Positions 13,488 through 18,595 of a stretch of 18,979 nt of DNA are shown here, one piece after another. The DNA lies in contig JBMFIG010000026.1 in the NCBI GenBank assembly GCA_049976425.1, positions 1-18,979 on the forward strand, in the 5' to 3' direction. The first letter of the stretch is position 1, and every line of letters starts with the position of its first letter. A program made the position numbers and the translations under genes. Source of the stretch: Thermoproteus sp. GTDB taxonomy: Archaea; Thermoproteota; Thermoprotei; Thermoproteales; Thermoproteaceae. The notes beneath the pieces are model-generated. The model saw only the letters and a program-made list of their open reading frames with translations. It had not been told where the DNA came from and did not search any database.

Positions 13488-13519
13488 AAAGCTTAAAAAC
13501 CTTTAGAAATATATGTAAA
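13488..13519 (+). promoter_or_regulatory. BRE/TATA and upstream flank of tRNA-Lys, repeated upstream of tRNA-Arg
   Basis: AAAGCTTAAAAA-N6-GAAATATATGTAAA. Confidence 0.75.
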
Positions 13520-13521
13520 GG

Positions 13522-13635
13522 GGGCCCGTAGCTCAGCCTGGTAGAGCGGCGGAGGATAGACGTCCGCCGCGGCTCTTAACCCGTAGGTCGTGGGTTCGAA
13601 GGGGACGGCCCCCGAAACTCCCACCGGGCCCGCCA
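13522..13635 (+). tRNA. tRNA-Lys(CTT) with introns at 30/31 (13553-13571) and 59/60 (13601-13618); CCA encoded
   Basis: GGGCCCG/CGGGCCC acceptor stem and GCGGG-CT-CTT-AA-CCCGT anticodon arm after splicing. BHB central helices are CGGC/GCCG and TTCG/CGAA, each with 3-nt bulges. Confidence 0.93.
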
Positions 13636-13795
13636 GCAACTCTTTGTCGACCATGAGCTAGCTTTGCGGCCCCATGCCCGTCCCTAATGATATTCCCGTG
13701 ACGGCGATTGTCCTCGAACCCAAAAGGTGGGGGATCATTGAATCGATGGAGCCAGCTTGGCGCCACCTGATTCTCGCCACACCCACACTCTATAG

Positions 13796-14131
13796 TCACG
13801 TAACCTCAATAGCTTTAGATTTTAGGTATTCCTTAGCTTCGTCTTCGTAAGCTATGTGTAGCTCTACCGGCGCATCCCAAGGTAGCCCGTAGCAGTCCAT
13901 GGATCTCGTTAGAATATCCTTATACAATTTACTTTTATTAATAGCAACATTCCCTGGAATTATTATAAGTATATCTATATCGCTAAGCACGGCGGTTCTG
14001 CCCTCTGCGACGCCGCCGATTACGTAAACCCTAACGCCCGGCACTAGATCTCTAGCGGCCTTCATTACGGCTGTCGCATATTCTCTTCACCTCCTCAAAT
14101 GCTCGAAGTGGCTCCTAACCCAGCTTGACAC
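13796..14131 (-). pseudogene. Minimal nucleotidyltransferase (MNT antitoxin) with a premature stop
   Basis: GTG-SSWVRSHFEHLRR*REYATAVMKAARDLVPGVRVYVIGGVAEGRTAVLSDIDILII...PVELHI. TGA at 14089..14087 sits where Trp (LRRWREY) is expected. Confidence 0.8.
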
Positions 14132-14532
14132 GGCTAACTAGGCTATCTAGTAGCTTTATTTAGATCCTTAACGACTCTCGACGCGGCGGAGACGTCACCG
14201 GCGTCGTAGCTCGACTCGCCGTATCTGCTCTCGATATAGGACTCCTCGAGGGCTATGAGCACATCCCTATTGTCAGCCGTAAAGCTCCTTAGTTCATGGG
14301 CCAATTCCTCATAGCCCTACGCCTCGAGGTCCTTGGCCAACAGTCCTAGCAACTCCCTGATTCCATGACCTCAGATCTTAACGCCGAATAGCTCGAAGTA
14401 TACGGCCTTTACGTATAATTGAGCGGCCTGCTCTATTAGGAACATCGCTATGTCGTAGTTGTCGGCGCTCTCCGTTATGCGCATCGCATCGAGCGCCCTC
14501 TCCCTCAACCTTTTAGAGTAGACACAGCCCAT
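14115..14532 (-). pseudogene. HEPN-domain protein pseudogene
   Basis: MGCVYSKRLRERA...YDIAMFLIEQAAQLYVKA...KI*GHGIRELL...EA*GYEE...LEESYIESRYG. In-frame stops at 14373..14371 and 14319..14317, plus a 1-nt frameshift near 14160 before LIKLLDSLVSRVKLG*. Confidence 0.82.
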
Positions 14533-14561
14533 CCTATTAGTATAAAGACGTAGGTAACCGG

Positions 14562-14981
14562 CTACTGCTTGAGCTTGAAGGGCTTGCCCTCGTAGAGTAT
14601 CTTCTTGGCGAGGTCGGGGGCGGCCTTCTCCAAGTCGTCCTTTATCGACTTCAAGAACTCCACCTCGTCCTTCTCGTTGCGCAACTCGTCGGGCAGCATG
14701 CGCGGTATCTCCTCTATTATCGGATACCACCTGCCGCAGGTCGGGCAGTATATCACGCCGGTCTCGATCTCCCATCTGTGGCACTCCTCGCAAGGGAGCG
14801 TGTCGGGCTTGGGGTGCTCCTTGATCTTCAGGTCGCGGTAGGAGCAGTACTCCTCGCAGAAGGGCTTCCTGGGCCAGGTGTACTGCCTCTCGGGATGCTC
14901 CGTCCTCTTGATCACTATCAGGCGGAGGGGGAATGTCTTGTCGTAGGGACACGCCAACACGTCCATCAGCCTATACTTCAT
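14562..14981 (-). CDS. trm112: Trm112-family methyltransferase activator
   Basis: MKYRLMDVLACPYDK...EIETGVIYCPTCGRWYPIIEEIPRMLPDELR is the typical archaeal Trm112 signature. Confidence 0.88.
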   Translation of the reverse strand: MKYRLMDVLACPYDKTFPLRLIVIKRTEHPERQYTWPRKPFCEEYCSYRDLKIKEHPKPDTLPCEECHRWEIETGVIYCPTCGRWYPIIEEIPRMLPDELRNEKDEVEFLKSIKDDLEKAAPDLAKKILYEGKPFKLKQ

Positions 14982-15012
14982 GCCACTTGGATAGTGCGCC
15001 TTTTTAAGTTAT

Positions 15013-16368
15013 CTAGACGAACCCGTTGAGGACCAAGCTCTCCAGCGACTTCTCGAGGGGCCTCCTCAGAGATATCGCCAGGAGGGACGCGTAGAAGATA
15101 GCCGAGGCGTAGAGCCCGGCGATCGGGGAGGCTACGGCGGCCGCGCCGGCGGCGAACGAGGCGAAGGCGGAGAGGCTCAGGAGGAACGTCCTTAGGCCTA
15201 CCCTGAGAGGCCAGGTGTGTTCTCCCTTGATCTGGTAGGGGGACACGAGGGAGAATAGATATGCGTAGAGGGACGCGAAGGGAGGTATCTGGCCCAGCGC
15301 CGCGATCGCGACCCCCAGCCCGTAGCGGGAGCCGAGTAGCCAGGCGGCCGCCCCAGCCGCGGCCAGAGGCGAGAGGAAGACGGCCGTGGACGCGGCTATC
15401 GCGAACAACATATGCCTCATGTAGCGGACGCCCAGAGACGCCGCGGAGATCCAGAGCCTCTCGTTGGCGACGGCGCCGGCCCCCATGAGCGAGGCCGACG
15501 CCGCCGAGGCCGCGAACACCGCCACTGTGGCCGGGATTGGGCCGCCGTAGGCCATGGAGGCCGCGAGATACACGGCCGCCGCGGCGGAGACCGCCAGCAC
15601 CAGCCTGCCCATGCCCACCCTGCCGGTCCTGTACTGGACGCCGCCCCACGCGCCGCGCCCCACGACGCTCACGTTGTGCAGTCTGAGCAGGTAGACCGCC
15701 TTGACGGGGCCAGCGCCTCTGAAGGAGACCTCGCGCCCCGCCAGCTCGGCGCCGCCGTGGGGATAGGCGTAGGACTCCAGCCTCCTCAGCTCGGAGAGGG
15801 CCAGAGCGGAGAGGGCGGAGGCCGCCGCGGCGGCCAAGGCCAGGCCGGCGGGCGATCCCAGAAGGGCCGAGGTGGGAGCGTAGGGCCAGCCCAAAGCCGG
15901 CGAGATCAGCCAAGCGCCGAGGACGCCGGCGGCGAGGGCCCGGAGCTTGAGGGGGAGCCGGTAGAAGGAGACAGAGGCCGAGACCGCCAGCGCCGTCAGC
16001 GCGAGGGAGGCCGCCAGCGATTCGGCCAGGCCGAGGTAGGGCACCAGCAGAGACATGCTGACCACGTAGAGGAAGAACGGCCAGTAGAGGAGCAGTTGCG
16101 CGGCGTAGAGGGAGGCCGCGAGGGCCCATCTGCCCACCGGCGTCTGGAGCAGGAAGTCGAGATCGGCCCTCAACACGAGGGGCCCTCCGCCCAGCACCGC
16201 CAGCGCGGTGATCAACGCGGCGAGCGAGATCGCCATCAACGCGAACGGGGCCAGATCGAGCTTGGGCATCAGCAGAGCCTGGAGGGTGATGTAGGCGGTG
16301 CTGACCCCCAGAAGGACCACGTAGGGGCCCGTGAAGCGCGACTTGACGACGAGCCCCAGAAGGCTCAT
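15013..16368 (-). CDS. Polytopic membrane protein, probable ABC exporter permease
   Basis: About 12 hydrophobic segments, an ADLDFLLQTPV motif, and an ATGA overlap with the upstream ABC ATPase. Confidence 0.8.
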   Translation of the reverse strand: MSLLGLVVKSRFTGPYVVLLGVSTAYITLQALLMPKLDLAPFALMAISLAALITALAVLGGGPLVLRADLDFLLQTPVGRWALAASLYAAQLLLYWPFFLYVVSMSLLVPYLGLAESLAASLALTALAVSASVSFYRLPLKLRALAAGVLGAWLISPALGWPYAPTSALLGSPAGLALAAAAASALSALALSELRRLESYAYPHGGAELAGREVSFRGAGPVKAVYLLRLHNVSVVGRGAWGGVQYRTGRVGMGRLVLAVSAAAAVYLAASMAYGGPIPATVAVFAASAASASLMGAGAVANERLWISAASLGVRYMRHMLFAIAASTAVFLSPLAAAGAAAWLLGSRYGLGVAIAALGQIPPFASLYAYLFSLVSPYQIKGEHTWPLRVGLRTFLLSLSAFASFAAGAAAVASPIAGLYASAIFYASLLAISLRRPLEKSLESLVLNGFV

Positions 16369-17066
16369 GGCCCCCTCCTGATGATCTCGGCCACGGCGGC
16401 CTCGAGGCCCCTCTCCCGCGCGCCCGGCACCTCGGCCAGAGGGCCCCGCCAGACGATCCTGCCGCCCGACATGATCAACACATCGTCGGCAAGGCGCTCG
16501 GCCACCGAGAGTATGTGCGTCGAGACCAGGACCGTGGGCCTCAGAGATTCGAGGAGAGACACCACGGCCTCTTGGGAGGGCACGTCCAGGTAGTTGAGCG
16601 GCTCGTCGAGGAGGGCTACCTGCGGCTTGTGGACCAAGGCCATGGCCACGGCAAGCCTCTGCCTAATGCCTCTAGAGATCGAGGAGGCCTTGTAGCGTAG
16701 ATAGCGCTTAAGCTCCAGCGCCTCCACGAGCTCGTCCACCCAGCCCCAGTCCTCGACGCCCCTCAAGGCCGCCATGTACTCCAGATTCTCCCTCACGGTC
16801 AAGGCCAGATACGGCTCAGGATCCTCGGGGAGATAGCCCGAGATGCGCCTGGCATCCTCGGAGCCGGCCTCGAAGCCCCCCACCGACGCCCTCCCTCCGT
16901 CCGGCTTGAGGAGCCCCGCCAGGATCTTCAACGTGGTGGACTTACCAGCTCCGTTGGGGCCCAGAAGCGCCGCCGCCCCGCCGCAAGGCACCCCGAAAGT
17001 CACGCCGTCGAGGGCCCTCAGATCCCCGTAGCTCTTGACCAATCCAGACGCCGCGATGCAGTCCAC
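16365..17066 (-). CDS. ABC transporter ATP-binding protein (multidrug/ABC-2 type)
   Basis: Walker A GPNGAGKST, signature ISRGIRQR, Walker B ALLDEP, H-loop STH. Confidence 0.93.
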   Translation of the reverse strand: MDCIAASGLVKSYGDLRALDGVTFGVPCGGAAALLGPNGAGKSTTLKILAGLLKPDGGRASVGGFEAGSEDARRISGYLPEDPEPYLALTVRENLEYMAALRGVEDWGWVDELVEALELKRYLRYKASSISRGIRQRLAVAMALVHKPQVALLDEPLNYLDVPSQEAVVSLLESLRPTVLVSTHILSVAERLADDVLIMSGGRIVWRGPLAEVPGARERGLEAAVAEIIRRGP

Positions 17067-17232
17067 GGAGGTGCCAGGACATATCTATAAAACCGTTGCA
17101 ACGCGGAGGCGACCTCTAGGGCTACGGCGCGGCGCCCCTCCAGAGATCCTAGGCGCCCCGCCCGAGCGAGCTTATAGGCGTTGCCTTCAGCGCCGGCGTC
17201 GTGCCAGGATTGCTTGCGCGGAGATCGGAGAG

Positions 17233-17264
17233 AAAGCTTAAAAATATATTGAAATATATGTAAA
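17233..17264 (+). promoter_or_regulatory. BRE/TATA and upstream flank of tRNA-Arg, repeat of 13488-13519
   Basis: AAAGCTTAAAAA-N6-GAAATATATGTAAA. Confidence 0.75.
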
Positions 17265-17360
17265 GGGCCCGTAGCTCAGCATGGATAGAGCGGCGGAGGA
17301 CCAGATCCGCCGAGCCTTCTAAGCCGTAGGTCGCGGGTTCAAATCCCGCCGGGCCCGCCA
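17265..17360 (+). tRNA. tRNA-Arg(TCT) with an intron at 30/31 (17297-17314); CCA encoded
   Basis: Cloverleaf forms after removing AGGACCAGATCCGCCGAG. Anticodon arm GCGGC-CT-TCT-AA-GCCGT; A20 in the D-loop (Arg identity element); central helix CGGC/GCCG. Confidence 0.93.
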
Positions 17361-18299: not shown

Positions 18300-18422
18300 G
18301 CGGCGGTAGTCTAGCCTGGTTTAGGATGGCGGCCTTCCACGCCCAGCGCGAGGAAAGCCGTTGATCCCGTCAGGCCCCCGCAAGGGGGCTGGGATAGGGT
18401 TCGAATCCCGGCCGCCGCACCA
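18300..18422 (+). tRNA. tRNA-Gly(TCC) with introns at 37/38 (18340-18355) and 51/52 (18370-18397); CCA encoded
   Basis: GCGGCGG/CCGCCGC acceptor stem and GCGGC-CT-TCC-AA-GCCGT anticodon arm after splicing. Central helices are CTTC/GAGG and ATCC/GGAT. CTTATAAAAA TATA at 18271. Confidence 0.92.
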
Positions 18423-18504: not shown

Positions 18505-18595
18505 TGGGGCCGCCGCCGGGATTTGAACCCGGGTCAATGGGGCCACAGCCCACCGTCAGGGGGCTTCCCTATCCTAGCCGCTAGACTACGGCGGC
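18505..18595 (-). tRNA. tRNA-His(GTG) with an intron at 25/26 (18570..18555); C73 and CCA encoded
   Basis: Reverse complement reads GCCGCCG TA GTCT AGCGGCTA GGAT [AGGGAAGCCCCCTGAC] G GTGGG CT GTG GC CCCAT TGAC CCGGG TTCAAAT CCCGG CGGCGGC C CCA. BHB helix TAGG/CCTG. Confidence 0.92.

Follow-up and report, generated by a model that had tools for sequence, protein, structure and literature searches.

Shared promoter blocks of the tRNA-Lys(CTT) and tRNA-Arg(TCT) genes of a Thermoproteus genome probably reflect a common tRNA promoter and a known intron family

Two transfer RNA (tRNA) genes, for tRNA-Lys(CTT) and tRNA-Arg(TCT), lie 3.7 kb apart on an 18,979-nucleotide contig of the hot-spring archaeon Thermoproteus sp. 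(JBMFIG010000026.1, here contig C26; the whole contig is hereafter the window). They share promoter sequence and acceptor stems, and both carry a related intron at tRNA position 30/31, which raises the question of whether DNA has been exchanged between them. An earlier note on the window had proposed exactly this, either as gene duplication with an anticodon and identity switch or as gene conversion carrying promoter, 5' exon and intron together. Its observation is confirmed, and its specific inference is refuted by two outcomes which the note itself had named as contrary to the idea: the promoter block stands before many unrelated tRNA genes that lack the 30/31 intron, among them genes for Ala, Val and Thr, and the flank of each ortholog is conserved independently. 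We consider it probable that the shared blocks are a tRNA core promoter specific to one subclade and held by purifying selection, and that the introns belong to a known Thermoproteales family; the finding is, for the most part, an ordinary one.

A promoter used by about a third of the tRNA genes

Both genes are preceded by the same two blocks, AAAGCTTAAAAA and GAAATATATGTAAA, with a gap of 6 nt between them in each case (Table 1). The coordinates reported in the earlier note were confirmed, and none of 200 dinucleotide-preserving shuffles of the window reached two matches for either block. GAAATATATGTAAA has A or T at 12 of its 14 bases. The mature Arg(TCT) sequence begins directly after it, while the mature 5' end of Lys(CTT) lies two G residues beyond it, at position 13522. 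Counted from the mature Arg 5' end, the 3' edge of the 12-mer is at −21 and the 14-mer fills −14 to −1. The promoters of the two other tRNA genes in the window, Gly(TCC) and His(GTG), lack the 14-nt block, as previously noted, their best match having six mismatches.

We then placed these two genes among the other tRNA genes of the same genome (G000; 1.84 Mb in 96 contigs, 60% G+C). Our catalogue holds 39 tRNA genes, 35 found with the Rfam tRNA model (E up to 10) and four with our own scans, and is incomplete. Six contig ends fall inside tRNA genes (both ends of C1, and C3, C5, C6 and C47), and all tRNA counts from this assembly are therefore lower bounds. These breaks in a short-read assembly are probably due to repeated promoter-plus-5'-exon modules. 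ARAGORN called only one of the four tRNA genes in the window, that for Arg, and misread its anticodon as 4 nt; when run on the whole genome with introns allowed, it returned many implausible kilobase-long 'introns', and these calls were left out of the counts.

The exact 14-mer occurs six times in G000, each time immediately ahead of a tRNA gene: Val(TAC), Ala(GGC), Ala(TGC), Lys(CTT), Arg(TCT) and Thr(TGT). With up to three mismatches allowed, it is found at −14 to −21 of 12 of the 39 genes, the further, near-exact cases being Val(CAC), Arg(CCG), Arg(GCG), Lys(TTT), Trp(CCA) and one gene at a contig edge. Only 5 of these 12 genes carry the 30/31 intron; among the seven without it are genes for Ala, Val and Thr, whose bodies differ. 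The block is thus neither confined to the Lys/Arg pair nor tied to the intron. The 12-mer, with at most one mismatch, is more widespread still, standing at −31 to −36 of 17 of the 39 genes (Glu, Asp, Ile and Leu among them), where it has the form of an A/T-rich TATA box with an upstream, purine-rich transcription factor B recognition element (BRE) at a fixed distance from the gene. As about a third of the tRNA genes use the same promoter, the likeness of the Lys and Arg promoters is no proof of a DNA swap.

Among 31 genomes searched, the exact 14-mer was found in G000 (six copies), its closest complete relative G007 (six), G008 (five), G006 (three) and G016 (one). It was absent from the other 26, five of which belong to the same genus. 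All 20 copies in G000, G007, G008 and G006 precede tRNA genes, and in G007 the exact block is borne by the same six tRNA genes as in G000. The Thr-type genes have a distinct layout, in which the exact 14-mer follows a spacer of 3 nt instead of 6 and is separated from an unrelated 5' exon by a leader of 7–8 nt.

Segments of this kind are merely 6–48 nt long, so difference counts were used in place of segment trees. We compared 11 block-bearing genes of G000 with their orthologs in G007, which served for both ortholog and synteny comparisons, and with each other as 55 pairs of paralogs within G000. The 12-mer differed at 0 of 132 positions between orthologs and at 4% of positions between paralogs, and the 14-mer at 2 of 154 and 22%, respectively. 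The 6-nt spacer differed at 6 of 66 positions (9%) between orthologs and at 67% between paralogs, and the 12 nt upstream of the BRE at 13 of 132 and 62%. Across the 11 ortholog pairs, differences therefore numbered 2 in 286 positions inside the blocks versus 19 in 198 outside them, as expected under purifying selection. Such a pattern points to two functional elements that purifying selection maintains on either side of an unconstrained spacer, and not to a recently shared tract.

The Lys/Arg pair itself follows the same pattern. Outside the blocks, its spacers differ at four of six positions and the upstream 12 nt at 10 of 12 (14 of 18 unconstrained positions), and the pair ranks 46 of the 55 paralog pairs for likeness there. 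The longest identical run of the pair is 14 nt. Isoacceptor pairs in G000 served as controls. In Leu(TAG)/Leu(CAG), as in Gln(TTG)/Gln(CTG), identity continues for 29 bases without a break, across the spacer and up to the gene, and two Ser genes have promoters that are identical, spacer included, up to the gene start; the Lys/Arg pair has no such continuity.

Comparison with G007 gave the same answer. The interval from Lys to Arg is syntenic between the two genomes at 85–94% identity, and the blocks and spacers of both syntenic genes in G007 are identical to those in G000; each flank has thus been conserved in its own place. The Lys(CTT) gene of G007 has this identical promoter, a different 30/31 intron and no T-loop intron, and the histories of promoter and intron are therefore uncoupled.

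Archaeal promoters combine a BRE and a TATA box with an A/T-rich proximal element (−11 to −2) and an initiator, with the TATA box's 3' edge 23 ± 2 nt from the start site (PMC2699501; here and below, the literature is cited from excerpts of the sources). The promoters described here match that core promoter, and the tRNA promoters of PMC3218864, whose distance from the mature 5' end is fixed, in element position, A/T richness, order, strong consensus among tRNA genes and TATA-to-start distance. They differ in one respect: the proximal element of the cited methanogen is only weak, whereas here six genes have an exact 14-mer, and only four of the genus's nine genomes have it.

Block distribution, conservation pattern, synteny and tRNA-body affinities were observed in this analysis; the role of GAAATATATGTAAA and the position of the start are what we infer. 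AAAGCTTAAAAA would serve as the BRE/TATA element of many tRNA genes in the subclade, and GAAATATATGTAAA would combine an A/T-rich proximal element with the initiator. Given the position of the 12-mer edge and the TATA-to-start spacing cited above, transcription is predicted to begin with the mature 5' G or no more than a few bases away from it. Purifying selection would keep both blocks and leave the 6-nt spacer, and the sequence upstream of the BRE, free to drift. Lys(CTT) and Arg(TCT) would then be two ordinary, vertically inherited users of a common promoter, and their common 5' exon would be the conserved 5' half of Lys, Arg and Trp genes seen in all sampled relatives in the order. The 30/31 introns would belong to the short bulge-helix-bulge family of Thermoproteales, with ends fixed by pairing with the 5' exon.

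tRNA bodies, introns and copying between genes

The acceptor stems of the two genes are indeed identical (GGGCCCG/CGGGCCC in both). The first 31 nt are near-invariant in Lys and Arg genes across the three families sampled, with or without a 30/31 intron. Removing the introns restores a normal tRNA sequence for both genes. Spliced Arg(TCT) is identical to Arg(CCG) at 72 of 75 positions versus 66 of 75 for spliced Lys(CTT), which in turn matches Lys(TTT) at 72 of 74. Each body is closest to its own isoacceptors, giving no sign of alloacceptor remolding, and the proposed duplication with an anticodon or identity switch has left no visible switch. The Rfam tRNA model spans Arg(TCT) with a single 27-nt insertion at the anticodon arm; it gives Lys(CTT) just 16.1 bits because that gene has two introns.

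The 30/31 introns of Lys(CTT) and Arg(TCT) are related, as the earlier note had said, aligning with identity at 15 of 19 positions. These identities fall mainly at positions that pair with the exon or within the intron. In minimum free energy (MFE) folds of both introns, the end of the 5' exon is paired with the 3' part of the intron, and an inner GGA/UCC helix forms; the bulges in this register are 1 nt, and the same nucleotides also allow a 3-4-3 register to be drawn by hand. Among 18 other introns, the nearest to that of Lys(CTT) was the Arg(TCT) intron, followed by the Trp intron at 14 of 19, a margin too small for a donor to be named. The Arg(TCT) intron is identical to that of its G007 ortholog (18/18), and over its 14 3'-terminal nucleotides it does not differ from the Lys(TTT) intron. 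In G007, Lys(CTT) instead holds a Trp-type intron (16/17 to Trp), and the 30/31 intron of Lys(CTT) has therefore turned over. The introns of Lys(TTT) and Arg(CCT) in another relative, G002, are identical at 24 of 24 positions. Like introns thus occupy the same position in different tRNA types (Lys, Arg and Trp) within one genome, which is what defines a cross-isotype intron family.

Such families are well known. Thermoproteales tRNA genes are interrupted by several short introns (PMC4090602, PMC4033280), and both 30/31 and the T-loop are among the intron positions listed in PMC4090602. Cross-isotype intron families are established in the order, with the mechanism of movement stated to be unknown (PMC4033280, PMC4090602, bioRxiv 10.64898/2026.10.13.758758), and 28.3% of 272 Thermoproteales introns fall into them (bioRxiv 10.64898/2026.10.13.758758). 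The background on which the earlier note drew, that short introns have spread between tRNA genes of this order by a mechanism still open, accords with both PMC4090602 and the bioRxiv study. The introns described here are of the same kind as the 'transposed' introns of Thermoproteales (Sugahara 2008 and Fujishima 2010, via PMC4033280, PMC4090602 and bioRxiv 10.64898/2026.10.13.758758), with multi-intron genes, related introns across Lys, Arg and Trp, and ends paired with the exon. What our data add is that the shared tract in relatives can include the promoter and the 3' flank. [quoted passage not shown]

Lys(CTT) also holds a second intron, absent from the description in the earlier note, in the T-loop (~59/60). 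In its MFE fold, the T stem is accompanied by a 4-bp UUCG/CGAA helix, and each splice site lies in a bulge. It is identical at 18 of 18 positions to the T-loop intron of Lys(TTT) in G000 (C13:37452-37565); in the Lys(TTT) gene of G007, a run of G is one base longer. Lys(CTT) lacks this intron in all five other genomes of the genus with a complete gene (G007, G001, G004, G002 and G003). From position 31 to the 3' end, Lys(CTT) and Lys(TTT) of G000 are identical except at the first anticodon base. The simplest account of the intron is therefore that the 3' half was converted; to judge from these sequences, the intron was probably gained recently, after the split from G007.

Longer copied tracts were found in relatives. 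In G008, Lys(TTT) and Arg(CCT) (L057/L058) are identical at 175 of 187 positions in a tract that begins near −40 and ends 17 nt beyond the 3' end; the differences cluster in the anticodon arm. In G002, Lys(CTT) and Arg(CCT) (L043/L048) match at 163 of 176 positions, including 56 nt upstream, their differences lying mostly in the anticodon arm. Arg(TCT) and Lys(CTT) of G006 (L004) stand in tandem, 560 bp apart, and match at 77 of 88 positions from −53 to exon position 30; a stretch of 34 nt running through the spacer is the same in Arg(TCT) and Arg(GCG) of this genome. The general idea of spread at the DNA level is therefore supported by the T-loop intron copy and by the Lys/Arg tracts in relatives, but the Lys(CTT)/Arg(TCT) pair of the window shows no such tract.

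These cases resemble the gene conversion, concerted evolution and alloacceptor remolding of tRNA genes described for yeast and metazoans (PMC4090602). The likeness holds for the 3' halves of Lys(CTT) and Lys(TTT) and for the Lys/Arg pairs of G008 and G002, whereas the window pair shows neither the conversion nor the remolding seen in the yeast and metazoan cases. We found no description in the literature of promoter-inclusive homology between archaeal alloacceptor tRNA genes; the tables of Fujishima 2010 and Sugahara 2008 lay outside this search and may list a 30/31 group of Lys, Arg and Trp.

Selection or exchange

A recent, direct exchange between Lys(CTT) and Arg(TCT), by duplication with an anticodon switch or by a conversion tract of promoter, exon and intron reaching over 3.7 kb, would explain the identical blocks at equal spacing, the identical acceptor stems, and the fact that the Lys(CTT) intron finds its best match in Arg(TCT). 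The adjacency of these two genes in G002 and G006 would favour it too. Nevertheless, we regard such an exchange as highly improbable. The spacer and upstream DNA of the pair differ at most positions, the intron identities lie where pairing constrains them, and the Arg(TCT) body is of Arg type. Moreover, the G007 loci already hold the same promoters, spacers included, yet have another Lys(CTT) intron. An older event is harder to set aside, although we think it unlikely: promoter-inclusive conversion or duplication among genes with a GGGCC-type 5' exon, in the ancestor of the subclade, which has since decayed outside the selected blocks. The likeness of Lys and Arg would then be the remnant of a DNA-level exchange, not necessarily one between these two genes. 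The block is specific to the subclade and tied to GGGCC-type genes, the set of genes that bear it differs between G000 and G008, and fresh promoter-inclusive tracts exist in G008, G002 and G006, all of which speak for such an event. However, the spacers of the 11 block genes with standard spacing are near saturation when compared with each other, as opposed to the small divergence between orthologs, and any such event must therefore be much older than the G000/G007 split and has left no pair-specific trace. The exact block of Thr(TGT), with its 3-nt spacing, 7-nt leader and unrelated 5' exon, also fits selection on the motif better than copying.

Selection on a common promoter has its own difficulties, and several observations weigh against it. 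The block is present in 11 of the 13 genes that start with GGGCC(C/G)G versus 1 of the 26 others, and homology-dependent copying would yield the same GGGCC-linked pattern. The gene set is not fixed, since Ala(CGC) has the block in G008 and lacks it in G000. Six exact and six near-exact 14-mers are a tighter set than the usual weak consensus of a proximal element. Since five genomes of the same genus lack the block, it came to be shared within a single subclade, and how this happened is not explained by selection alone. The Lys(CTT) 30/31 intron is nearer to that of Arg(TCT) than to that of its own G007 ortholog, which it matches at only 13 of 19 positions. Finally, about 46 tRNA genes are expected in a genome of this kind, and relative to that figure the catalogue of 39 is incomplete. 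We also put forward a wider account tentatively, as a possibility that we would sooner doubt than accept. Whole tRNA units, beginning a little upstream of the BRE and reaching a few bases beyond the 3' end, may have been copied repeatedly within the genus between genes that share exon sequence, Lys and Arg included, with selection keeping the anticodon arm distinct. Promoter-inclusive conversion would then be the vehicle both of 'intron transposition' and of the spread of the block; the window pair would represent an old and decayed case, and the Lys(CTT) T-loop intron a recent case. A subclade-specific core promoter under purifying selection, together with the known intron family, is still the explanation we favour.

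The pair thus gives no clean evidence on intron movement, because the promoter identity is family-wide. What the comparison supplies instead are datable events: a T-loop intron copied between Lys isoacceptors, and Lys/Arg pairs homologous from promoter to 3' flank in three relatives. Shared upstream motifs at archaeal tRNA genes need to be checked against all tRNA genes of the genome before they are read as homology.

Neighbouring genes and other loci

Table 1. Positions of the tRNA genes, promoter blocks, introns and further loci. Positions are those of the window unless a contig or locus is named.
Feature	Location	Strand	Remarks
BRE/TATA-type block AAAGCTTAAAAA, tRNA-Lys(CTT) promoter	13488..13499	+	sequence match
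Putative proximal/initiator block GAAATATATGTAAA, tRNA-Lys(CTT)	13506..13519	+	2 nt before mature 5' end
tRNA-Lys(CTT), two introns	13522..13635	+	spliced 74 nt; CCA encoded, 13633-13635
Lys(CTT) 30/31 intron, 19 nt	13553..13571	+	pairs with 5' exon end; GGA/TCC inner helix
Lys(CTT) T-loop intron (~59/60), 18 nt	13601..13618	+	local fold; copy in Lys(TTT)
BRE/TATA-type block AAAGCTTAAAAA, tRNA-Arg(TCT) promoter	17233..17244	+	sequence match
Putative proximal/initiator block GAAATATATGTAAA, tRNA-Arg(TCT)	17251..17264	+	abuts mature 5' end
tRNA-Arg(TCT), one intron	17265..17360	+	Rfam tRNA 51.5 bits; spliced 75 nt; CCA encoded
Arg(TCT) 30/31 intron, 18 nt	17297..17314	+	pairs with 5' exon end
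Nucleotidyltransferase/HEPN gene pair	13796-14065, 14371-14952	-	
tRNA-Gly(TCC)	18300-18422	+	non-canonical inserts
tRNA-His(GTG)	18505-18595	-	non-canonical inserts; divergent from Gly(TCC)
Thr-type genes with 3-nt spacer	G000 contig C29:423; G007 L040; G008 L051, L053	- (C29:423)	
Isoacceptor promoter duplicates, Leu TAG/CAG	C3:4642/C5:81314		
Isoacceptor promoter duplicates, Gln TTG/CTG	C7:2148/C47:8018		
Isoacceptor promoter duplicates, two Ser	C39:932/C5:86430		
Arg(CCT)-orthologous locus pieces	C6:1-100, C1:1-100, C13:39956-40333	-	

Between the two tRNA genes lie the nucleotidyltransferase/HEPN pair, an unassigned open reading frame and an ABC ATPase gene. G007 has about 3.3 kb of extra sequence in the stretch corresponding to window positions 14310 to 14558, which marks a spot of insertion or deletion. 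Downstream, a sub-threshold CRISPR-repeat match at 18360-18395 is a hairpin inside the insert of the Gly gene. The sub-gathering Rfam matches in the window (Plastid-ycf2, CRISPR-DR57 and mascRNA) overlap tRNA genes or an intron hairpin and were dismissed as chance.

One further locus of G000 differs in its arrangement from G007. In G000, the promoter orthologous to that of Arg(CCT) in G007 leads, at a contig edge, into a Trp-like 5' part, and the site orthologous to the 3' end of Arg(CCT) holds a Lys(CTT)-like 3' half that starts inside a 30/31 intron. No anticodon loop of Arg(CCT) in a tRNA setting turned up in a motif scan of G000. The idea that the Lys(CTT)-like 3' half on C13 is part of a split tRNA found no support, the 315 nt upstream of it having no complementary partner anywhere in the genome. 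One public contig of 517 nt holds the C6 promoter twice, 432 nt apart, and the locus represented by the start of C6 and the end of C13 appears to be rearranged or duplicated.

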